Part shown: piece by piece, positions 10,069 through 29,524 of the stretch | Layout: each line of letters begins with the position of its first letter | Position numbering within the stretch: position 1 is the stretch's first letter | Source: an uncultured Pseudomonadales bacterium | GTDB taxonomy: Bacteria; Patescibacteriota; Microgenomatia; UBA1400; PJMF01 | Direction of reading: 5' to 3' | Assembly (NCBI GenBank): GCA_964412775.1 | Contig: CAYPPX010000001.1 | Span: 141,473-205,472 of the forward strand | Length of the DNA: 64,000 nucleotides | Position numbers and translations under genes: made by a program | The notes under the pieces: generated by a model | Told to the model about the DNA's origin: nothing | The model's database searches: none | The model's input: the letters and a program-made list of their open reading frames with translations, nothing else

Positions 10069-10302
10069 ATGCCAACTCTCGAAGAAAAACAACAAGCTTT
10101 AGAAACCTTAATTCATCAAAGTATTTTGTTAGATGAAAGTAAAAAACCAGAATTAGTTTATAAAATTCCTCAGATGTCAGAAGCAGATATTGATAATTTA
10201 GGTCGGTTTTTAGCCATGGAAGTGCAAAATGCTGAAAAATTTTATGAGGAAAACTTGCCCAAATTAGAAAAATTTATTGAAGAATTAGATAAGGCTGGGT
10301 AG
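10069..10302 (+). CDS. hypothetical small helical protein
   Basis: 77 aa. Preceded by a good RBS (AAGGAAATAATG) 7 nt after the upstream stop. Confidence 0.4.
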   Translation: MPTLEEKQQALETLIHQSILLDESKKPELVYKIPQMSEADIDNLGRFLAMEVQNAEKFYEENLPKLEKFIEELDKAG

Positions 10303-10345
10303 TTGTTAATAACTTGAAGAATAAGAAACCTCTAAAAGCCTCAAA

Positions 10346-11329
10346 TTAACTGGTTTTTTTAAATTTAGCCACAAACATTGGATCTAAATTATCCAGATGT
10401 GGTTGGACCCTTTTGACCAATTTTTCATCAAAACCATGAACGTAGTTTTTTAACCCAGCTTGGCCAACTTTAAGGTTAAGTGGTTGGATTTTGGCATCTA
10501 AATTTTTTGCTAAAAAATCATTGACGACGTCTTCATTTTCTTCTGGAGTAACGGCACAGGTTGAGTAAACCAAGGTGCCACCTGGTTTTAAGGTTTTCCA
10601 GACGGAACTAAGCAGGTTTTTTTGACGTTTGGCTAGGGTTTTAACTCTAGTTTCACTCCATTTTTTTAATTCTTTTTCTTCATTTAAAATATGTTTTTCA
10701 CTACTACAAGGTGCATCCACCAAAATTTTGTCAAAGTAATTAGGGTATTTATAAAACAAGGTTTCGGCTTTTTGGCCCCAAACTTCAATATGCTCTTTAT
10801 GGTAATCGTTAAAGATTTGTCTCATCGTGCCACGGCGGCCACTAGACAAGTCATTAGCAATTAAATGGCCTTGTCGGTCGAGGAAGTCATCAATCAGCAT
10901 GGCTTTACCACCAGGTGCGGCACAAGCATCCAAGACTAAATCTCCAGGCCCAGCTTCTAGAGCCAAGGCTGGTAGTAACGAGGCGGCGTTCATTGGGTAA
11001 AAGAGTTTTTCTTTAAAGCCTGGTAAAACAGTTCTAGCTGGAGTTTCTTTTGGCCATAATAACGCATAAGGATACCAGGATAGAGTTTTCCAAGTTAAGC
11101 CATTATTTTGCCAAAGTTGTTGGAGTTTTTCTTGATCATGAGGATTAAAACGTAAGACTGGTAGCGAGTTAGTTTCCAACGCTTGTTTCCAGGATAGAAA
11201 CTCAGTTTCTTGGTCAAAAAACTGTTGGTAATAGTCCAAAAAGGCTGTTCGACCGGTTGGTTTTTTATTTTTCATTAAAGAGTTTTTTCCAGGCTTCAAC
11301 TGGGGTGGATGGAGGGAGTTGAAGTTCAC
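10346..11329 (-). CDS. NOL1/NOP2/Sun-family RNA m5C methyltransferase (RsmB/RsmF-like)
   Basis: SAM-binding block LDACAAPGGK, catalytic DAPCSS block, and TLVYSTCA block. Confidence 0.8.
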   Translation of the reverse strand: MNFNSLHPPQLKPGKNSLMKNKKPTGRTAFLDYYQQFFDQETEFLSWKQALETNSLPVLRFNPHDQEKLQQLWQNNGLTWKTLSWYPYALLWPKETPARTVLPGFKEKLFYPMNAASLLPALALEAGPGDLVLDACAAPGGKAMLIDDFLDRQGHLIANDLSSGRRGTMRQIFNDYHKEHIEVWGQKAETLFYKYPNYFDKILVDAPCSSEKHILNEEKELKKWSETRVKTLAKRQKNLLSSVWKTLKPGGTLVYSTCAVTPEENEDVVNDFLAKNLDAKIQPLNLKVGQAGLKNYVHGFDEKLVKRVQPHLDNLDPMFVAKFKKTS

Positions 11330-12804: not shown

Positions 12805-13827
12805 ATGAAAACAAATAAACAAAGAATTTTAGCTGGCATTACACCAAGTGGTAACTCACTGCATATTGGTAACTATTTTGGGGCAGTTAAACCTCATATC
12901 GAGTTACAAAATAACCAAGAACTAGATACGCATTACTTCTTGGCTGATTTACATGCGCTGACGACTGTTCGTGACCAAAAAACTTTGGAGAACAACATCA
13001 CTGGGGTGGTTTTGGATTATTTAGCACTAGGTTTAGATCCAGAAAAATCGGTGTTTTTCCGTCAATCTCAGGTGTCGGAACATAGTCAGCTGGCTGTAGT
13101 TTTGGCTAACTATATTTCTTATGGTCAAATGCAACGAATGCATGCTTTTAAAGATAAACTACAGAAAAATACTAGTGTTGAGTCGATTAACATGGGTTTG
13201 TTTAACTATCCAATCTTGATGGCTGCCGATATTTTGTTATATAGACCAATGGGTGTGCCAGTGGGTGAAGATCAACGTCAACACATTGAGTTGACTAGAG
13301 ATATTGCTGAAAGTTTTAATCATACATATAAGCAGGAGATTTTTCCGTTGCCAGAACCAATGATTGGTAAAAAATCAGGCAAAATTGTGGGCACTGATGG
13401 CCAACGCAAGATGAGCAAATCGCTAGGCAATACCATTGGGATTTTTGAAGACGAAGCCGTGATTCGTAAGCAAATTATGAGTTGTTTTACTGATCCTAAC
13501 CGTAAAAAGGCTACTGATCCAGGTAAAGTCGAAGGTAATCCAGTCTTTATTTACCACGACTTGCTAAATGATAACTTGGCAGAAGTTGAAGAGCTCAAGG
13601 CTAGATACCAAGCTGGTACTGTTGGTGATGTGGAAGTCAAAGAAAAACTTTTTTTGGCTCACCAACGAACTTTTGCTCAGGCTCGTCAAAAGAGAGCTGA
13701 GTTGGCTGGTAATTTAACTTTAGTGAGAGATATTTTGGCTAGTGGTGCTCAAAAAGCTGGTCTAGTTGCCCAGGCAACTATGCAGGAAGTTTATCAAGTG
13801 ATTGGTATTAAAAATAAATTAAATTAG
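12805..13827 (+). CDS. trpS: tryptophan--tRNA ligase
   Basis: HIGH-type motif (GITPSG..LHIGNY) and KMSKS. Confidence 0.9.
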   Translation: MKTNKQRILAGITPSGNSLHIGNYFGAVKPHIELQNNQELDTHYFLADLHALTTVRDQKTLENNITGVVLDYLALGLDPEKSVFFRQSQVSEHSQLAVVLANYISYGQMQRMHAFKDKLQKNTSVESINMGLFNYPILMAADILLYRPMGVPVGEDQRQHIELTRDIAESFNHTYKQEIFPLPEPMIGKKSGKIVGTDGQRKMSKSLGNTIGIFEDEAVIRKQIMSCFTDPNRKKATDPGKVEGNPVFIYHDLLNDNLAEVEELKARYQAGTVGDVEVKEKLFLAHQRTFAQARQKRAELAGNLTLVRDILASGAQKAGLVAQATMQEVYQVIGIKNKLN

Positions 13828-13836
13828 AAGGCAAAA

Positions 13837-14172
13837 ATGAAACCAACTATTGAATACAGTGATTTTGAAAAACTAGATATTAGAATTGGTAAAGTAGTGG
13901 CGGCAGCTGCTCCTGAATGGAGTAAAAAACTTTTGGAGTTTACTGTTGATTTTGGTGAAGAACTCGGGACCAAGACTATTTTTTCTGGAATCAAAGAATG
14001 GTACAAGCCAGAAGATTTTATTAATAATAGTTATATGTTTATTGTCAACTTAGCAGAAAGAAAAATGGGTGAGGGCGTTAGTCAAGGCATGATGATTATG
14101 GCTGATGGTGCTGATTTGCCTGTTCCATTCGCCTTAAAGCCAGAAGTGGCTGCTGGTACGGTAGTGCGCTAA
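13837..14172 (+). CDS. stand-alone OB-fold tRNA-binding domain protein (CsaA/Trbp111/EMAP-like)
   Basis: DFxKLDIRIGKV...EFTVDFGEELG..IFSGI pattern, typical of the Myf/tRNA-binding domain. Starts 9 nt after trpS. Confidence 0.7.
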   Translation: MKPTIEYSDFEKLDIRIGKVVAAAAPEWSKKLLEFTVDFGEELGTKTIFSGIKEWYKPEDFINNSYMFIVNLAERKMGEGVSQGMMIMADGADLPVPFALKPEVAAGTVVR

Positions 14173-14267
14173 GGTTTAAATCTACTCTTGAGTTTTTGAA
14201 GTTTTTTTTGCAAAATACACCTCTAGCCATGCCCTGGTAGTATTGATTTTTAGATACAGGGGAATGT

Positions 14268-15149
14268 GTGGTTGAGCGTCGCTTACCTATAACCAAAGAA
14301 AAATTAACTTTTATAGAGCAACCAGATTTAAAATTAATGGCTGTTAGTTTGTTGGCTGGTCCTTCAGTAGCTACGGTTGAAGTTATCCCAGAATTTAAAG
14401 ATAGAGCCAAAGGTGTTTGTGAAGGTTGTGGGGAAAAACTGGCTAAAAAAGATGCCATTATTGGTCATATGGATCATACTCCTGGTGGCCCTAGGTATAA
14501 CGCTGATAGTAATCTTAGAATTCATTGTTTGGGTTGTGAAGCAACCTGGCACTTAACTCATGTTGGTAGATCCAAAGAAATAGGTTTGTCTGAAGTTGCT
14601 AATGAAAGTACGGTAATTTCTAGACTTTTAGAGTTAGTTCGAAAAAATAAAAAAAGATTTGTGAAGTTAATTGAGACTGAAAGTGGCTACTTTTCTCCAA
14701 GTTTATTTTTTAAACTTTACTTAAATGAACCAGCAAAAATTGACCAAATTTTTACTAAATATAATTTAGAGTTTCCAGTTGATTTAGATCAGGAGATAAA
14801 CAATTTTTTCAAAAAAGAAACCCCAGACTTTATTTACTACTATTTTAGGAGAAAAAAGGCCTTTGATTATTATTTCAAAAACAGAAATTTAGATTTACCA
14901 GTTAATTTAGTTGATTTATTAAATGAACTTTTTATTAATGACTTTGAAAGCTACCTAAAACTTTATTTAAGATACTCTTTAGAAGTTGGCAAAATTTTTC
15001 GGCAAAACCACCAAAAACAGCCTAAAATAAAGACGTACCTAAAAAAATTAGCTAAAACCAATCAAGCAGAGTTTGAGAATTTTGTCTTGAGCTACCCAGA
15101 AATTTTTGATTTATTGGGGCACGAGGTGGTTGAAAACCTGCTTTCTTGA
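14268..15149 (+). CDS. HNH-nuclease-domain protein with an uncharacterised C-terminal domain
   Basis: CEGCGEKL...GHMDHTPGG...NLRIHCLGCEATWH is a CxxC-H-N-H-CxxC HNH signature. GTG start. The C-terminal 180 aa show no motif. Confidence 0.55.
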   Translation: MVERRLPITKEKLTFIEQPDLKLMAVSLLAGPSVATVEVIPEFKDRAKGVCEGCGEKLAKKDAIIGHMDHTPGGPRYNADSNLRIHCLGCEATWHLTHVGRSKEIGLSEVANESTVISRLLELVRKNKKRFVKLIETESGYFSPSLFFKLYLNEPAKIDQIFTKYNLEFPVDLDQEINNFFKKETPDFIYYYFRRKKAFDYYFKNRNLDLPVNLVDLLNELFINDFESYLKLYLRYSLEVGKIFRQNHQKQPKIKTYLKKLAKTNQAEFENFVLSYPEIFDLLGHEVVENLLS

Positions 15150-15179
15150 GCTAGTTACCATGTTACAATACCTGTCACT

Positions 15180-17108
15180 ATGACTGAAAAAGCAGGTAAC
15201 AAAACCGATAAATCTCCTAACAATAAAAAAGAGCAATCACCAGACAAAAAACTCCCTAAAAACCTCAAAGTTTTTCAGGTTAACATGAACTTAAATGATC
15301 TCTTGAATAAAGGGTTTGTAGCCTTGATTTTATTGTTAATTTTTTGGCCAACTCTTAAGAGTTTGTTTGGTTTTACTCCGACTGAATATATTTCTATTAG
15401 TCAATTAGTTCGTGATGTTCGTGACGAAAAGGTTGAGAAGATTCAAGTTTCTAGTACTGAATTGAGAGGTATTTATAAAGACGAAAGTCGTAAATATGCC
15501 ATCAAAGAAGAAGGTCAACAGGCTTTGTCAGTGCTGGATTATGCTGGAATTGATCTAGCTGCAGTTGATGTTACTGTCGAAAACGTTTCTTTTAGACAAC
15601 TTTTCTGGGAACTGATTATTAATTTCTTACCAATTGGTTTGATGATTTTCTTTTTCTTATTTATGTTCCGCCAAGCTCGGGGCGCTCAAGATGGCATTAT
15701 GGGGATTGGTAAAAGTAAGGCCAAGGTTTTTATCAAAGGTAAACAAAATATTACTTTTGCTGATGTTGGTGGCATGGATGAGGCCAAAAAAGAACTCCAA
15801 GAAATTGTTGATTTTTTGAAGTTTCCTAAAAAATACATCAAAGTAGGGGCAAGAACGCCCAAAGGTGTATTGTTAGTTGGTCCATCTGGTACTGGTAAAA
15901 CTTTATTGGCTCGAGCGGTGGCTGGTGAAGCTAACGTTCAGTTTTTATCGATTGCTGGTTCTGAGTTTATGGAGATGTTAGTTGGGGTCGGTGCTTCTCG
16001 TGTCCGTGATTTATTTGACACTGCTAAAAAATTAGCTCCAGCTATTATTTTTATTGATGAAATTGATGCAATTGGTCGCATTCGTGGCCAAGGGAGCATG
16101 GGTGGTCACGATGAGCGTGAGCAGACTCTCAACCAGATTTTAGTTGAGATGGATGGTTTTGCTCGGAATGAAAACGTGATCGTGATGGCTGCTACCAACC
16201 GTGGTGATATGCTTGATCCAGCTTTAGTAAGACCTGGACGTTTTGACCGCCGAGTAACTGTGTCTTTACCAGATTTAGAAGAACGTAAATTTATCTTAAA
16301 GATCCATGCCAAAGGTAAACCACTAGACAAAGATTTGACTTGGGAAAAAATTGCTAAGCGAACCGTTGGCTTTTCTGGCGCTGATTTAGAAAACATGATG
16401 AATGAAGCAGCAATTGCCATTGCTCGTGAGAATAGAACTGAGATCAATATGGAAGACATTGAAGAAGCTTCAATGAAGGTGAAATATGGTCCAAGCAAAA
16501 AGCGCTTGCATGATGAATATGAGCGTGAAATGACCGCTTATCATGAAGCTGGCCATGCAGTTTTGGCTCATATCTTGCCATATGCTGACCCAGTTCACCG
16601 CATCTCGATTGTTTCTCGTGGACATGCTTTGGGTTACACTTTTACTCCTCCAGAAAAAGATAAAGTTCAATTGCTCAAATCTGAGATGCTTGATGATATG
16701 GTCGTGATGATGGGTGGTCGAGCTGCGGAAATGCTGGTTTATAACGAACAAACCGCTGGAGCTAGTAATGACATTGAACGAGCTACTAGAACAGCCAGGG
16801 CGATGGTGGTGGATTATGGCATGAGTGACTTGGGACCCATGAATTTTGCTCCACAATATGAAACTAATTACTCTAGATCCTGGGGTGAACCACAAAAAAT
16901 CTCAAGTAAACTTCAAGAAAAAGTTGATGCAGAGATTCAAAAATATATTGATACAGCTGCTAAAAAATCGCTTGAATTGCTCAAAAAACACCGTAAAGAG
17001 CTTGATGCTGTGACCAAAAGACTGCTTGAGGTTGAGACTTTGGATGGTGACGAATTTACCAAAGTAATGAACATGCCTAAAGCCAGAAAAGAGCTTAAAA
17101 AAGCTTAA
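15180..17108 (+). CDS. ftsH: ATP-dependent zinc metalloprotease FtsH
   Basis: TM region, Walker A GPSGTGKT, second region of homology, and HEAGHA zinc site. Confidence 0.95.
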
Positions 17109-17154
17109 AATTCTGATTGTTCTTGGCTAACTTTTTGCGTATGATATTCTCAGT

Positions 17155-17604
17155 ATGTCTGCCCAGATAGTGCGTCGATTTCCATTAGTGCGTCGGTTGA
17201 GTAGGATCATGATTGTGATCTTGAGTTTGACGATTTTTGCTGGGATGGTGATTATTCCTTTTGAGATGTATGCCAATGGGTCCAAAATCATAACCGGGAT
17301 TGATGGCTTGTGGTGGGCAATTACTACGGTTACCACCGTGGGTTATGGTGACATTGTGCCAGTGACGCCAATTGGTCGGTTGATTGGGGCGGTATTACAG
17401 ATTTCTGGGGCAGTAATGTTTGGTACCTTGGTGGGTACGATTACAGTTTATCTTAATCAGGTTCAAGAAGATTATGAGTGGCGAAGAGTCCATGAGAAAC
17501 TAGATCGTACTGAAGATGAGTTGGTTGCCATTAAACACAAACTTGATTACTTGATTAAAAATAAGGATAACAAACCAGTTCCAACTCAGCGGTGGCGAAT
17601 CTAA
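17155..17604 (+). CDS. small two-TM potassium channel (KcsA-like)
   Basis: Selectivity filter TTVGYGD between two hydrophobic helices. Confidence 0.8.
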   Translation: MSAQIVRRFPLVRRLSRIMIVILSLTIFAGMVIIPFEMYANGSKIITGIDGLWWAITTVTTVGYGDIVPVTPIGRLIGAVLQISGAVMFGTLVGTITVYLNQVQEDYEWRRVHEKLDRTEDELVAIKHKLDYLIKNKDNKPVPTQRWRI

Positions 17605-17662
17605 CTTATTCACTCTTTGTTTTGATTTCAAATTTTTACTAACCTGGTAAAATGGGTAGTTA

Positions 17663-18592
17663 ATGGCAAGAAAAACTTTTTTACTAGTTGATGGGCATGC
17701 TTTAATTTACCGATCATTTTATGGTTTCCCTAAAGAACTCACGACTAAGACTGGTCAATTGATTAATGCTGTTTATGGTTTTTCTAGAATTTTGTTGACG
17801 GTTATTCAACGCCAAGAACCAACTCATATTGCCGTTGCTTTTGATCACCCAAAACCTACCAATCGTCACAAAGAATTTGCTGATTACAAAGCGAATAGAC
17901 CAACGATGCCAGAAGAGCTTCAACATCAGGTGGGGATTATTAAAGAGGTTGTGTCAGCTTTGAACATTCCTCAGTTTGAGGTTGAGGGCTTTGAGGCGGA
18001 TGATCTGATTGGGACGATTAATCGCCAAGTGGAAAAACTAGACAAAGAGTTATTGACGGTAATTTTGACTGGTGACAAGGATATGTTTCAACTAGTCGAT
18101 AATGATACTCATGTTTATTTACCAGGTAGAGGGAAATTTCAAACCGACAAAGAGTATGACATTGAAGGGGTCAAAGAAAAGCTTGGAGTAATGCCAACCC
18201 AAGTCCCAGACCTCAAAGGGCTAATGGGTGATAGTTCTGATAATATTCCTGGGGTTAAAGGGATTGGTCCCAAGACAGCTAGTGGTCTAATTCAAGCCTT
18301 TGGTTCAGTGGAAAAAGTTTACGCAGCCCTAGAAGCTGGTGAAGATCATAAATTGTTTACTCCTTCAGTCAAAAATAAGTTATTGGCAGATAAAGCTAAT
18401 GCATTGGCTAGTAAATCACTAGCCACAATTATTACTGATTCACCAATAGATTTTGTTCTAGATGATTGTTTGGTTAACTCTTACGATAAAGAAAAGATCT
18501 CTAACCTTTTTCTAGAACTTGATTTTAAATCATTAATTAGTTTATTACCTCAAGATGAATTCGAGTCTTCAGTGCAGGAGGCATTGTTTTAA
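17663..18592 (+). CDS. stand-alone 5'-3' exonuclease (Pol I N-terminal domain/FEN family)
   Basis: LLVDGHALIYRSFY, FDxxxPTxR, GDKDMFQLV and the H3TH block GVKGIGPKTA. No polymerase domain follows. Confidence 0.85.
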   Translation: MARKTFLLVDGHALIYRSFYGFPKELTTKTGQLINAVYGFSRILLTVIQRQEPTHIAVAFDHPKPTNRHKEFADYKANRPTMPEELQHQVGIIKEVVSALNIPQFEVEGFEADDLIGTINRQVEKLDKELLTVILTGDKDMFQLVDNDTHVYLPGRGKFQTDKEYDIEGVKEKLGVMPTQVPDLKGLMGDSSDNIPGVKGIGPKTASGLIQAFGSVEKVYAALEAGEDHKLFTPSVKNKLLADKANALASKSLATIITDSPIDFVLDDCLVNSYDKEKISNLFLELDFKSLISLLPQDEFESSVQEALF

Positions 18593-19716
18593 TGACAGTA
18601 ACCACTGCTAAACAACTTAGAGTTGCTTTGGTCCATGATTACTTGAGGGAGTTTGGTGGAGCTGAAAGAGTTTTGGAAGCTTTGCATAATTTGTATCCAG
18701 AAGCACCAGTCTATACGGCTTTTTTTGACCGAGTAGCTTTGGGCGTACATGCTGACCGATTTGCTGGTTGGGAGATTAGAGAAACTTGGCTCAGCAAAAT
18801 TCCAGGTTTCAAAAAACTCCACTCACCCTTGAGGTTTTTGGCACCTTGGGCGTTTGCTAGTTTGGATTTGAGTAACTATGATTTAGTGATTTCTTCATCG
18901 AATGCTTATTTTGCTAAAGCCGTCAAAGTACCAAATGGTAAACATATTTGTTATTGTCATACACCACCCAGGGTTTTGTATGGTTATTCAGCGATGAGTG
19001 ACTGGCAAAGTAACCTGCTGATGCGAGTGGCAGGTCAGTTTCTTAATCATTTTATGAGAGTGATTGATGTTAAGGTTTCTCGGGAAAGAGTGGATCAGTT
19101 CATTGCTAATTCTCAGGAAACTGCTAGCAGAATTAAGAAGTTTTATCGCTTGGCCTCAACTGTAGTTTATCCGCCAGTTGAACTAGCTGAAGTTGACTCA
19201 GCTAAAGTTGAAAAAGGTGATTATTTTTTATATGTTAACCGGTTGGCTTTGGCCAAACATCCAGAACTAGCAGTTGAGGTTTGTAGTAAATTGCAGCTAC
19301 CACTCAAGGTAGTTGGTACCGGTAAAATGTTGGCTAGCTTGCAAGCTATGGCTGGTCCAACAGTTGAGTTTTTGGGCGCGGTTGATGACCAACAATTAGC
19401 AAAACTTTATGCTGGAGCCAAAGCTTTACTGTATCCAGTCGAACACGAAGATTTTGGGATTGTCCCAGTTGAAGCGATGCTTTATGGCACACCAGTAATT
19501 GCTCATAACTCCGGTGGTCCCAAAGAAACAGTGATTAATGGTAAATCTGGAATAGTTTTTGATGATTTGACTGTAACTGGTTTGGAAACAGCTTTAACAG
19601 CATTTGCTAAACAAAAATTTTCTGCCACTGAGATTAAAACTTGGGCCAAAACTTTTAGTAAGACAGCTTTTAATCAAGGCATTAAAAAGTTAGTTGTGGC
19701 AACTTTAACAAAGTAG
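18592..19716 (+). CDS. GT4-type glycosyltransferase (GT-B fold)
   Basis: C-terminal EDFGIVPVEAMLYGTPVIA...GGPKE block. Overlaps the previous stop (TAATG). Confidence 0.75.
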   Translation: MTVTTAKQLRVALVHDYLREFGGAERVLEALHNLYPEAPVYTAFFDRVALGVHADRFAGWEIRETWLSKIPGFKKLHSPLRFLAPWAFASLDLSNYDLVISSSNAYFAKAVKVPNGKHICYCHTPPRVLYGYSAMSDWQSNLLMRVAGQFLNHFMRVIDVKVSRERVDQFIANSQETASRIKKFYRLASTVVYPPVELAEVDSAKVEKGDYFLYVNRLALAKHPELAVEVCSKLQLPLKVVGTGKMLASLQAMAGPTVEFLGAVDDQQLAKLYAGAKALLYPVEHEDFGIVPVEAMLYGTPVIAHNSGGPKETVINGKSGIVFDDLTVTGLETALTAFAKQKFSATEIKTWAKTFSKTAFNQGIKKLVVATLTK

Positions 19717-19770: not shown

Positions 19771-20496
19771 ATGATCGATCTTGTTGCCCGTCAGATTCAA
19801 ATTTTACGCGCTATTATCGAGGAATTCATCGAGACAGCTAAACCAGTTGGTTCCGATACCATCGATAAGAAGTACAATATTGGTGTTTCTCCAGCTACTA
19901 TTCGTAATGAAATGGTTTACCTGACAAAACAAGGTTACTTACAAAAGTCTCACATTTCTGCTGGTAGAATTCCGACTCCCTTAGCTTTGCGCTTATACGT
20001 TAATGAGTTAATGAAAGAGAAAGAGTTATCAGTAGCTGATGAGGTGAGTGCTAAAGAAAAAATTTGGCGTCATCGTCAACAAACTGATGCTTTGCTTTAC
20101 GAAGCAGCCAAGTTATTAGCTGACAGAGCTGGTGCTGTTGGTTTAGCCATGTCTAGTACTGATAGTAGAATTTATCACTCTGGTTACGCAAATTTACTTA
20201 ATATGCCAGAGTTTTTTGATATTAGAGTGACTAGAAATGTTTTGAACTTAATTGAAGAAGTAGACCTGATTAAAGAAGTCTTTGGTTTGGGTCAAAGTGA
20301 GAACCCAATTCATTTGGTTTATGGCAAAGACTTGGGTAACAAAAGTTTAGATCCCATCAGTGTAATTTATATGGATGTTAATGCTGGTGGAACAGTTTGT
20401 AAGCTGGGAGTGCTTGGCTCACACCGTTTCGACTATCCTTACATTATTCCAATGATGAAATACTTTAAAGCTTTAATCGAGGAAATTGCTGGTTAA
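19771..20496 (+). CDS. hrcA: heat-inducible transcription repressor HrcA (short form)
   Basis: N-terminal wHTH: LxxRQIQILRAIIEEF...GSDTI...SPATIRNEM..L...GYL...HISAGRIPT. Confidence 0.8.
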   Translation: MIDLVARQIQILRAIIEEFIETAKPVGSDTIDKKYNIGVSPATIRNEMVYLTKQGYLQKSHISAGRIPTPLALRLYVNELMKEKELSVADEVSAKEKIWRHRQQTDALLYEAAKLLADRAGAVGLAMSSTDSRIYHSGYANLLNMPEFFDIRVTRNVLNLIEEVDLIKEVFGLGQSENPIHLVYGKDLGNKSLDPISVIYMDVNAGGTVCKLGVLGSHRFDYPYIIPMMKYFKALIEEIAG

Positions 20497-28001: not shown

Positions 28002-28279
28002 AGTGAATTTGGTATACTGGCACTTAGCTAAATGATCGAAGAAGAATCATTAAATTTATTTCCAGATGAAGTGAAAAAAGCTTTAGATAGCCACGAGATG
28101 GTGGTTTTTTTGTTGGGCTTGTAACCAAGTCTTATATGAAGCCGATAAAATTGATGCTGTTACTAGCCGAGTGGCTTATGAGTCTGCTGTGGGGCATGAA
28201 GATGCTTATACGACTGAAGACCATCAGACAGATGTGTTCCGAAAAGGGGATGAGTTGGTAAATTAGGGATTAAAACGAA

Positions 28280-28307
28280 TTGAGGCGCTCCTTGCGGAGC
28301 GCCTCAA
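28280..28307. terminator. strong GC hairpin (bidirectional terminator-like) at the left edge of the GC-rich island
   Basis: TTGAGGCGCTCC-TTGC-GGAGCGCCTCAA, a perfect 12-bp stem. Confidence 0.55.
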
Positions 28308-28330
28308 AACACTTAATTAATACTTGAACC

Positions 28331-28705
28331 TTATGGGTGGGTAGGCGCCGCGGTTAACTGTTGAAAGTCAAAAATCGCTGGCACCATCCACCTCCAGCCG
28401 AAGAAACCGATTCGTCGCCCACGGGCCTGGAAGGCGATTTGGCTGTTTTCCATCATCCGGTCCCAGTGTAGGGTACCCCAGAAGACGGTATACACACGCG
28501 TGTCTGTGAACTGGACATAGTACGTGTGTGTCGTTGTACAGCCATCATCATCACAACTGGTGTTGGTTTCAACCCATTTACTGGAAATCCAACCGGTGCC
28601 ACTGGCATCAGCAGAATAGAACCAGATCATGAAAATCACCGCAACCACCAGCATTACAATGTAGACAACCGTATTGGTGTCACTACTGGAGGATCGATAA
28701 CGCAT
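28331..28705 (-). CDS. hypothetical membrane-anchored protein (foreign composition)
   Basis: 124 aa. N-terminal TM helix, then a Trp/Tyr-rich extracytoplasmic domain with a CDDDGC motif. Strong RBS GGAGGG. Its ATG lies 1 nt after the upstream stop. About 50% GC. Confidence 0.5.
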   Translation of the reverse strand: MRYRSSSSDTNTVVYIVMLVVAVIFMIWFYSADASGTGWISSKWVETNTSCDDDGCTTTHTYYVQFTDTRVYTVFWGTLHWDRMMENSQIAFQARGRRIGFFGWRWMVPAIFDFQQLTAAPTHP

Positions 28706-28706
28706 G

Positions 28707-29183
28707 TTACCCTCCAGCTTGTTGGTGATGTTTCTCGTTGGGAATGGCTGTCTTCCAGGCTAAGAAATAGCCCAAGCCGGTGACAAGGGTGCCCCAAATG
28801 AAGAACAGGGTCTTTGGGGGAACCATCAGCAAGAATGAGTTGATAGTCTGGCTGAAGGGCAGAACAACCAGTTGGGTTGCCAACACCACTTGGGTGGCGA
28901 AGGTTGTTGCCAGGACGCCCATGACGACTGAAGTCAGTAATCCAAAGCGAAGGTGGCTTTGAGAGCTCATCTCAACCTTGTATTCGTACTTGTCATCGAA
29001 GTAGTCCAAGATTAACGCCACGGCATATCCGAAGATGGCCGGGGCGGCAATCACCAGAAGGACTACCAGGATCTTGCTAGTGAAATCAACGAGCGACAGC
29101 CCCATGATGGCGAAACCGATTAGGTTTGCCAACAGTTCGAACTGGCGATTGGACAGCTTTTGTAAAAAGGTTTTGTTTTGCAT
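28707..29183 (-). CDS. hypothetical 4-TM membrane protein (foreign composition)
   Basis: 158 aa with four hydrophobic helices. RBS GGAGAAA. About 50% GC with GC-ending codons. Confidence 0.5.
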   Translation of the reverse strand: MQNKTFLQKLSNRQFELLANLIGFAIMGLSLVDFTSKILVVLLVIAAPAIFGYAVALILDYFDDKYEYKVEMSSQSHLRFGLLTSVVMGVLATTFATQVVLATQLVVLPFSQTINSFLLMVPPKTLFFIWGTLVTGLGYFLAWKTAIPNEKHHQQAGG

Positions 29184-29460
29184 TGCTTAAATTTCTCCAT
29201 TTCGGAAGGGTATAGTACCCACCTGTTGAGAAAAGCTAGTCTCTAAGGTGGGGAAATAAGTAAATTAATAATTTACTTATTGCCCCACTCAGAGATAAAA
29301 GTATGATTCAAGTATGTTAAAGTGCTAATTTCTTAGATTTGTATGGTGAGTAGCAACTACTTAGACACAAAAATAAGAGAGTTGAATTATACTATTTTTA
29401 TCCTATATTGTCAATATTATAGGACTATTTAATCACTTTACTTTAACTTTAGCTAACTTT

Positions 29461-29487
29461 TTAGCACTCAGCCTTTTTCTCTGCTTA
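29461..29487 (+). promoter_or_regulatory. CIRCE-like element upstream of dnaJ (TTAGCACTC-N9-CTCTGCTTA)
   Basis: Left arm is a perfect CIRCE half-site. Right arm is degenerate. Confidence 0.4.
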
Positions 29488-29524
29488 ATTTTTTACAATT
29501 TCCTTGTTACAATCACTACATTCT

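Follow-up and report, generated by a model that had tools for sequence, protein, structure and literature searches.

We analysed a 64,000-nucleotide (nt) stretch of an uncultured bacterium (contig CAYPPX010000001.1, positions 141,473 to 205,472; hereafter the window). A preliminary description had singled out in it a 0.9-kb island of high guanine plus cytosine (GC) content that encodes two small membrane proteins, here called A and B, and had suggested that the island was acquired from a higher-GC donor. In our best model, this island is the coding core of a self-contained transcription unit of ~1.15 kb that is specific to one lineage. Its mRNA probably closes on itself through pairing of leader and tail and would thereby be protected from RNases, a model that we hold with moderate confidence. 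As judged from homologous loci (numbered L001 onwards), the two-gene unit, or cassette, is more likely an old, conserved possession of a small group of ultra-small, Patescibacteria-like bacteria than a foreign one.

The two genes are the core of a complete transcription unit

Genes A and B belong to a unit ordered as strong promoter, 5'-terminal hairpin, structured leader of ~196 nt, A, B, short 3' untranslated region (UTR) and intrinsic terminator (table 1). The two minus-strand open reading frames (ORFs), their lengths of 158 and 124 amino acids (aa), the CDDDGC motif, both Shine–Dalgarno (SD) sequences and the 1-nt gap between the stop codon of A (28707-28709) and the ATG of B (28703-28705) were all as previously described. 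So was the character of the pair as a tightly coupled membrane operon, made of a protein with four transmembrane (TM) helices and a membrane-anchored exported domain. A tight or overlapping junction between the two genes is kept in all loci, and B is translationally coupled to A.

The promoter hexamers (29386-29414) match the consensus at 12 of 12 positions. An extended promoter, CCTATAAYATTGAC followed by 17 nt and TATAAT, was present in every locus with enough upstream sequence, and the extended motif CCTATAAYATTGA is found a single time in the 64 kb and a single time at each cassette locus. We ruled out the extended promoter motif as a cassette-specific signal, as it also drives the gene of a 39-aa peptide in L009 and a radical-SAM gene in L047. 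The radical-SAM (MiaB-like) gene lies at an unrelated locus and is preceded by the CCTATAAYATTGA promoter form (L047 10905-10917). The peptide gene belongs to a second mini-cassette (L009 3002-3330, plus strand), which has the same extended promoter type and a 5' hairpin and whose GC-rich gene encodes a hydrophobic peptide (MTILMHKKVGDSSYIEDHKPWLAIGVWLALGWRPGPSPS); by eye, the start codon lies within a hairpin, a terminator of its own follows and the whole resembles a type I toxin gene. In the window cassette, an inverted repeat (CCTATA-N10-TATAGG, 29402-29423) that occurs nowhere else in the window brackets the -35 hexamer. Related repeats stand on either side of this hexamer in several other loci, and the repeat may be an operator. 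Relative to L003 and L006, locus L008 is without ~22 nt that include the -10 hexamer (895-940), and its promoter may be weakened. No internal promoters were found in the cassettes.

The transcription start site (TSS) was inferred as 7 nt past the -10 hexamer, and a hairpin begins at most 4 nt from this predicted TSS in 11 of 15 loci. Between the 5'-terminal hairpin (P1) and a second leader hairpin (P2) lies a conserved leader motif, TTGCACTTTAACA. The P2 consensus comprises 21 pairs, 14 of which are kept via changes on both sides (11 loci). The 13-bp AT palindrome of the preliminary description exists, but it is merely the tip of the longer P2 hairpin with its 20-nt, 95% complementary arms (29248-29288). 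The perfect 12-bp GC hairpin with its 4-nt loop (28280-28307) is also there, and in the other cassettes a homologous GC hairpin is followed by TTTCGTTT. Both structures had been described as bounding the island. They are conserved parts of the transcription unit, the leader hairpin and the terminator, and not borders of an insertion or insertion scars, because L003 and L008 share 88% identity over the unit, promoter and terminator included, and beyond it their sequences are unrelated. The cassettes have in common the promoter and leader motifs, P2 and the terminator; on this comparison of sequences the whole unit is conserved, non-coding parts included. Searched with the Rfam 15 covariance models, the leader gave merely sub-threshold miRNA-like hairpin matches to P2, and the whole window gave only two tRNAs at gathering score.

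Table 1. Features of the cassette in the window, in the order of the predicted transcript.
Feature	Position	Strand	Description
Cassette promoter	29386-29423	-	CCTATAATA upstream element, TTGACA, 17 nt, TATAAT
Predicted TSS (~29379) and 5'-terminal hairpin P1	29332-29379	-	P1 -12.4 kcal/mol, z = -4.3
5' strand of the predicted 5'–3' helix (TAGCACTTTAACATACTTGAATCA)	29304-29327	-	leader motif and the ~10-14 nt after it; pairs with 28307-28331
Leader hairpin P2	29240-29296	-	arms 29248-29267 and 29269-29288, 95% complementary; upper stem is the 13-bp AT palindrome
SD sequence of gene A, GGAGAAA	29191-29197	-	read from the sequence; predicted to be about half unpaired with or without the 3' UTR
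Gene A	28707-29183	-	158 aa, four TM helices; from ORF and structure model
SD sequence of gene B, GGAGGG	28710-28715	-	within the end of A
Gene B	28331-28705	-	124 aa; short cytoplasmic tail, one TM helix (residues 8-31), exported OB-fold
3' strand of the predicted 5'–3' helix (AGGTTCAAGTATTAATTAAGTGTTT)	28307-28331	-	begins in the stop codon of B, ends at the foot of the terminator
Intrinsic terminator	28270-28307	-	12-bp GC-rich stem, 4-nt loop, then TTCGTTTT

Leader and tail are complementary and change together

A segment of the leader and a segment that starts in the stop codon of B are, in the loci compared, complementary and co-vary between lineages. One part of the helix is conserved in sequence and pairs GCACUU with AAGUGC. 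In the variable part the two strands change together: they read ACUUGAAUC/GGUUCAAGU in the window, AAUGAAUCUGA/UCAGAUUCAUU in L015 and L017 and UUGAAGCAUCG/GAUGCUUCAA in L012. For the co-variation test, the duplex segments were set by anchors that are independent of pairing, namely the GCAC motif in the leader and the stop codon in the tail; a matrix of duplexes with long tails was confounded by the GC-rich terminator stems, and the anchor-defined segments were used instead. Among 11 clade representatives, cognate duplexes had a mean energy of -19.9 kcal/mol and non-cognate duplexes of -10.7 kcal/mol (s.d. 3.95), and none of 20,000 permutations of partners reached the observed cognate mean.

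Folding of the full predicted transcripts (935-1122 nt) placed a helix of 14-30 bp in the minimum free energy structure with a probability of ~1 at 13 of 13 loci, so that complementary 5' and 3' UTR segments lie within one transcript in each. The core of the helix was also found independently by a search for inverted repeats (pair I7). With RNAalifold on six full transcripts the variable helix could not be aligned, and no decisive helices appeared within the coding region.

The coding region is more structured than its codon usage requires

We compared the RNA of A and B with controls in which codons were shuffled among synonymous positions, leaving protein and codon usage unchanged. The window RNA was more stable than these shuffles (z = -4.2; 0 of 40 reached the native value). 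Five other family members gave z = -8.7, -4.8, -3.3, -2.6 and -1.8, with none of 28 shuffles each reaching native, and five host genes of similar length ranged from +0.05 to -2.3. The coding region is thus more structured than its synonymous shuffles; the direction is the same across the family and the size varies.

Coding GC of the cassette is held near one value

The claim of a GC-rich island was borne out. The window has 37.5% GC and the stretch 28320-29200 has 49.8%, and of all 880-bp windows in the 64 kb, the one with the highest GC falls within this stretch (0.509; mean 0.375, s.d. 0.035). GC at third codon positions (GC3) is 0.59 in B and 0.66 in A, and 0.19-0.44 in the remaining 61 ORFs of at least 100 aa; YfhO and other membrane proteins of the window have ordinary GC3. 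The second-highest value in the window (0.44) belongs to a small potassium-channel-like membrane protein (Ion_trans_2, 149 aa; 17155-17604, plus strand). Codon adaptation, which the preliminary description had proposed as a check, pointed the same way: the codon adaptation index (CAI) relative to the host's own genes is 0.43 for B (z = -6.5) and 0.38 for A (z = -7.9), against 0.665 ± 0.036 for host genes. The shift is driven mainly by C-ending codons and CTG (island versus host genes: TTC 82% versus 13%, GCC 52% versus 17%, CTG 43% versus 5%). In composition and codon usage, A and B therefore deviate as a horizontal island would.

Across 16 loci, however, cassette coding GC lies at 0.44-0.53 and GC3 at 0.47-0.67 (about 0.58), while host GC3 spans 0.21-0.54; regression of cassette GC3 on host GC3 gave a slope of 0.09 that was not significant. 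The coding GC is held near 0.49 whatever the GC of the host. The cassette's own non-coding leader is AT-rich in these loci (GC 0.33-0.43), and the window and L001 have both retained high GC3 although their cassettes are separated by a synonymous divergence (dS) of 0.66-1.2. Together with retention at the locus and the tracking of host divergence described below, this suggests that the composition is a maintained set-point.

More likely an old cassette of Patescibacteria-like bacteria than a recent import

Members of both protein families are very scarce. A search of 5.8 billion clustered proteins gave 8 close homologs of B, an exhaustive profile search of 1.84 billion proteins gave 28 cluster representatives, and a profile search for A gave 12 homologs. 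The pair recurs: an A-like gene stands directly before a B-like gene in 16 loci of Patescibacteria-like genomes. The genome matches include records titled Candidatus Gottesmanbacteria and 'Patescibacteria group', and three metagenome-assembled genomes bear unconfirmed Gammaproteobacteria or Pseudomonadales labels. A and B define two uncharacterised membrane protein families. In L014, B occurs without A behind the same promoter type.

The preliminary description had the island interrupt an otherwise conserved interval, a conservation that could not be read from the letters alone. The only close relative found, L001, is ~85% identical to the window in DNA and syntenic over 20 kb, and it carries the cassette in the same place with the same GC. 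More distantly, L012 (50% GC) has, at 2.3 kb from its cassette, a collinear block of a Trp/Tyr-type aminoacyl-tRNA synthetase, FtsH, a 5'–3' exonuclease and GT4; the proteins of this block are 42-56% identical to those encoded at 12805-19716 of the window, with B at 52% and A at 26%. L009 has a homolog of the NHL gene (46% identity) 2 kb from its cassette, and L002 and L009 share mscL as a neighbour. Conservation of the pair at its locus with the same composition, which the preliminary description had named as evidence against its own reading, was therefore largely what we found, as the same locus in L001 and as linkage in L012 and L009. Two marks of a horizontal island did not appear. The cassette was not missing at the same locus in relatives (L001; linkage in L012 and L009), and in five locus pairs cassette protein identity tracks the identity of flanking host proteins, so that the cassette was not closer to a donor than host relatedness predicts. 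These comparisons of gene order were drawn from loci that had been fetched through A and B. A metagenome scan with the neighbouring NHL gene for relatives without the island returned almost only distant fn3-domain matches and no close relative.

The alternative is that A and B form a recently acquired and unameliorated island from a higher-GC donor, for instance the host of an epibiont. It would account for the codon usage, strongly unlike that of the host, and for the rare and patchy distribution, and the sharp local deviation in GC and codons is what acquired islands have in common with the cassette. It would also fit a remote B-only homolog (profile E = 1e-12; L089 6001-6375, also L090 and L091), which was seen on at least 24 contigs. 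This homolog opens an operon within a 63%-GC region of phage- or ICE-like (integrative and conjugative element) character that holds an integrase, ParB (ParB_N), SSB, DnaB, a Rad52-like protein, a PDDEXK nuclease and DUF6011; its own GC matches that of its host.

Against an import speak the retention of locus and composition in L001 over the above dS, the linkage to the same housekeeping block in L012 and to the NHL homolog in L009, the parallel divergence of cassette and host, and the equal GC3 in 16 loci whatever the host GC. The AT-rich leader counts against it as well, because a GC-rich donor should bring GC-richer non-coding DNA. GC is 31-50% in each of the seven genome loci with the cassette, and none of the A+B cassettes seen came from a high-GC genome. 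Neither an integrase nor a transposase was found near the cassette loci, there are no flanking direct repeats in the window that could be target-site duplications, and neither a scan of viral contigs nor tblastn searches of phage records and plasmids returned a copy of A or B. These comparisons lend no support to a recent import from a higher-GC donor, which we consider improbable.

Other observations weigh against a cassette that has simply stayed in place. The cassettes of L003, L006 and L008 are 80-88% identical in DNA, yet their surroundings differ. Of ~14 independent loci, 5 have a tRNA gene no more than 500 nt from the cassette, where a rough expectation from tRNA density is ~1.5. Close cassettes in differing contexts, often adjoining tRNA genes, also fit the import just discussed, and they point to probable relocation or exchange of the cassette within the lineage. 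The flanking tRNA genes (Trp, His, Ser, Met, Ser), 10-460 nt away, are those of L002, L006, L008, L012 and L017. Their proximity may mean insertion near tRNA genes; no tRNA gene stands at the cassette junction in the window itself.

Two membrane proteins under purifying selection

Relative to L001, the ratio of non-synonymous to synonymous divergence (dN/dS) is 0.043 for B (dS 0.66) and ~0.1 for the two halves of A (dS 1.1-1.2). Judged by these low ratios (0.04-0.11), A and B are both protein-coding genes under purifying selection. B is better conserved than A, with 50-70% identity where A has 25-40%. In L001, a 1-nt insertion introduces a TAA behind codon 60 and so splits A (~10270-10310), and B is intact. 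The frame restarts at a Met codon, the conserved M72, and purifying selection continues to act on the downstream half (dN/dS 0.11). A tRNA-binding-domain gene 2 kb away (L001 8550-8908) is also split, and because of this second frameshifted gene nearby the L001 indels may be assembly errors.

The structure model of A (pLDDT, predicted local distance difference test, 75) has helices at residues 12-30, 34-65, 74-103 and 123-145. Invariant residues D60, D63, D64, E71 and H77 fall in the loop between TM2 and TM3, and further invariant residues are P123, G138-Y139 and A142-W143. By the positive-inside rule for the loop, we infer that the TM2–TM3 loop and both termini are cytoplasmic. B carries a Cys-bracketed acidic loop, C51-DDDG-C56, and conserved Trp, His and Met residues.

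The absence of a recognisable family was confirmed in that neither protein matched a curated family: Pfam, NCBIfam, PHROGs and PADLOC profile libraries gave no match for A or B, the PADLOC defence-protein models none at E up to 1. Searches of PDB by sequence profile gave nothing meaningful for either protein, and a fold search for A returned generic bundles only. B resembles DUF2500/YhhM (PF10694; structure 3q6c) in having an N-terminal TM helix followed by an OB-fold; unlike it, B has the Cys-bracketed acidic loop, conserved Trp residues and a 4-TM partner. PF10694 did not match the B of the window even at E = 10, and 4 of 32 family members matched weakly (best E = 0.014). The whole architecture of B also resembles several small phage proteins (TM-score 0.62-0.66). 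Among them are BFVD models of OB proteins of Lactococcus phage P162 (X4Y8C9) and Sulfitobacter phage phiCB2047-B (M4PN07), of the same architecture and size over ~118 columns. They are uncharacterised and share 11-17% identity with B, and no phage record matched at the sequence level. Most likely, A and B would form a small membrane complex in which B supplies an extracytoplasmic OB-fold subunit for ligand binding or recognition. An envelope or entry-exclusion type of role is our leading guess, offered with low confidence, because the remote B-only homolog lies in a phage-like element and the structural look-alikes are phage proteins.

The preliminary description had likened the pair to a toxin/immunity module. 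The two-gene arrangement fits, but toxin, bacteriocin or defence domains were absent from the profile-library results. A specific form of this idea is an addiction module, in which a membrane toxin and its antidote would be expressed from a stable mRNA 'locked' like that of hok. An autonomous unit that encodes two small membrane proteins and a 5'–3' closed, highly structured mRNA like those of hok and aapA would agree with it. So would the interrupted A beside an intact B in L001 and the occurrence of B alone in L014 and in the phage-like element, as for orphan immunity genes. The L001 indels may be artefacts, as noted above. At 158 and 124 aa, moreover, A and B are far above type I toxins (usually <60 aa). 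A scan of 15 cassettes for antisense sigma-70-like promoters with 10 or more of 12 positions matching found none, a test outside of which weaker or non-sigma-70 promoters fall. Closure did not sequester the SD sequence in silico (8 loci). Purifying selection is strong, also in the stretch of A that follows the L001 frameshift, and inheritance is largely vertical. We regard a toxin–antidote function as unlikely.

A proposed closed-loop mRNA and the points for and against it

In the closed-loop model, the mRNA would close on itself, with P1, the 5'–3' helix and the terminator burying nearly all free ends, and the GC-rich, paired coding region would expose few AU-rich single-stranded sites. With its ends buried and few such sites exposed, the message would be shielded against endonucleases as well as 5' and 3' exonucleases, and would be long-lived. 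Since the 3' strand overlaps the stop codon of B, ribosomes terminating on B would have to melt the helix, which would couple protection to translation. The odd codon usage would then be kept by selection on the RNA or on translation rate and would not be a donor relic.

Several points weigh against this picture. Transcript ends, RNA structure and half-life are predictions, with the TSS taken from the promoter alone, and ideas on the function of the proteins lean on fold resemblance only. The two weakest family members in the shuffling test (z = -1.8 and -2.6) lie near or within the range of the host controls. Synonymous sites evolve no more slowly than those of neighbouring genes, contrary to strong structural constraint (dS between window and L001 is 0.26-1.08 for flanking genes, and that of the cassette is similar). 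Predicted accessibility of the SD sequence and AUG was equal with and without the 3' UTR (8 loci), which gives no sign of a regulatory switch. Finally, G·U and A·C pairs numbered 8 versus 5, and sense and antisense duplex energies were alike (p = 0.78). This wobble test is non-discriminating, so the complementarity could in principle act at the DNA level.

At that level, the complementary segments might be inverted repeats of an invertible ON/OFF segment or the termini of a mobile cassette. The repeats do flank the SD sequence and both genes, the sense strand is not favoured by the wobble test, and gene conversion between repeats would also yield apparent co-variation. But all 16 loci read promoter, A, B, terminator, and across the 3' junction an independent assembly of the organism (L088) runs collinear. 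Because the conserved promoter and terminator enclose the repeats, these do not mark the ends of the unit; they also fall into two parts and contain an internal loop and indels, and no recombinase family was found among the called neighbours of the loci. An action in DNA is thus very improbable.

The GC3 of the cassette has a further possible cause, which is a non-exclusive alternative to the closed-loop model. GC-rich codons that are rare in the host could set the speed or level of translation of the two membrane proteins, through slow co-translational insertion or capped expression, with the RNA structure a by-product. The low CAI, 6.5-7.9 s.d. below host genes, the restriction of high GC to the coding part and the unreduced dS would all agree with this. 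It leaves the covarying 5'–3' helix, P1 and P2 unexplained, as well as the excess of structure over shuffles with the same codon usage, and the ordinary GC3 of YfhO and further membrane proteins in the window also speaks against it. As a full account we find it doubtful, though less so than the rivals above.

Comparison with known systems

The closest studied precedent for the predicted pairing is Bacillus subtilis hbs, where a 14-bp interaction between 5' and 3' UTR modulates RNase Y cleavage in a structured leader and affects stability (PMC5737220). The pairing of the two UTRs is the likeness. Unlike in hbs, ~970 nt of a two-gene operon separate the strands in the cassette, the 3' strand begins in a stop codon and the coding region is GC-enriched and over-structured; the helix is backed by co-variation in the family, that of hbs by experiment.

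The hok family also closes its mRNA through 5'–3' pairing (PMC9841398). With hok/sok and aapA/IsoA, which use a tac/fbi fold-back (PMC9841398, PMC6733600), the cassette would share a closed full-length mRNA, a compact fold and a membrane-protein product. It differs from both in having no small toxin ORF, no antisense promoter found and an SD sequence that is not sequestered in the predictions. A hok-like gating of the SD sequence is not supported, given its unchanged predicted accessibility on closure in the eight loci.

In Staphylococcus aureus icaR, the 3' UTR pairs with the SD region, which blocks translation and promotes decay (PMC3868564). Here too, 3' and 5' UTR of one bacterial mRNA pair; unlike in icaR, the 5' strand of the cassette lies ~120-145 nt upstream of the start codon and excludes the SD sequence.

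Neighbouring features

Just upstream of dnaJ, positions 29455-29490 (plus strand) carry TTAGCACTC, the left half of a CIRCE heat-shock operator, which is conserved in L001; the right half is degenerate. The window encodes hrcA at 19771-20496, and a similar TTAGCAC opens the leader motif of the cassette. Between the NHL gene and the cassette lies a small ORF (28036-28266, plus strand) that is frameshifted in a T7 tract (28100-28106). L001 has T6 at this site, and its counterpart is intact (77 aa; 11008-11241, minus strand). The T7 frameshift may reflect a pseudogene, a phase-variable tract or a sequencing error.

Significance for the lineage

To our knowledge, only a handful of bacterial mRNAs with conserved 5'–3' UTR pairing have been studied experimentally, and we know of almost no exploration of RNA biology in bacteria of the Candidate Phyla Radiation (CPR) type. 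Pairing between 5' and 3' UTR is a mechanism of a known kind; new are its form and its phylogenetic setting, joined here to two uncharacterised membrane protein families. The present case would span a whole operon in CPR-type bacteria, with comparative co-variation support across the family. It also calls for caution, as a sharp island of GC and codon usage, which is usually taken as horizontal transfer, here looks like a long-kept intrinsic trait of two genes.

More tentatively, and with a low chance of being right, the transcript itself may be the object of selection: an mRNA of ~1.1 kb with paired ends and a GC-clamped coding region, whose fold is held against AT pressure across deeply diverged Patescibacteria. 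If true, this would be an undescribed class of bacterial 'closed-loop' or stored message, stable while untranslated, opened by terminating ribosomes and possibly with a role at the RNA level beyond coding. A strong local anomaly in GC and codon usage could then reflect RNA architecture and not foreign origin.

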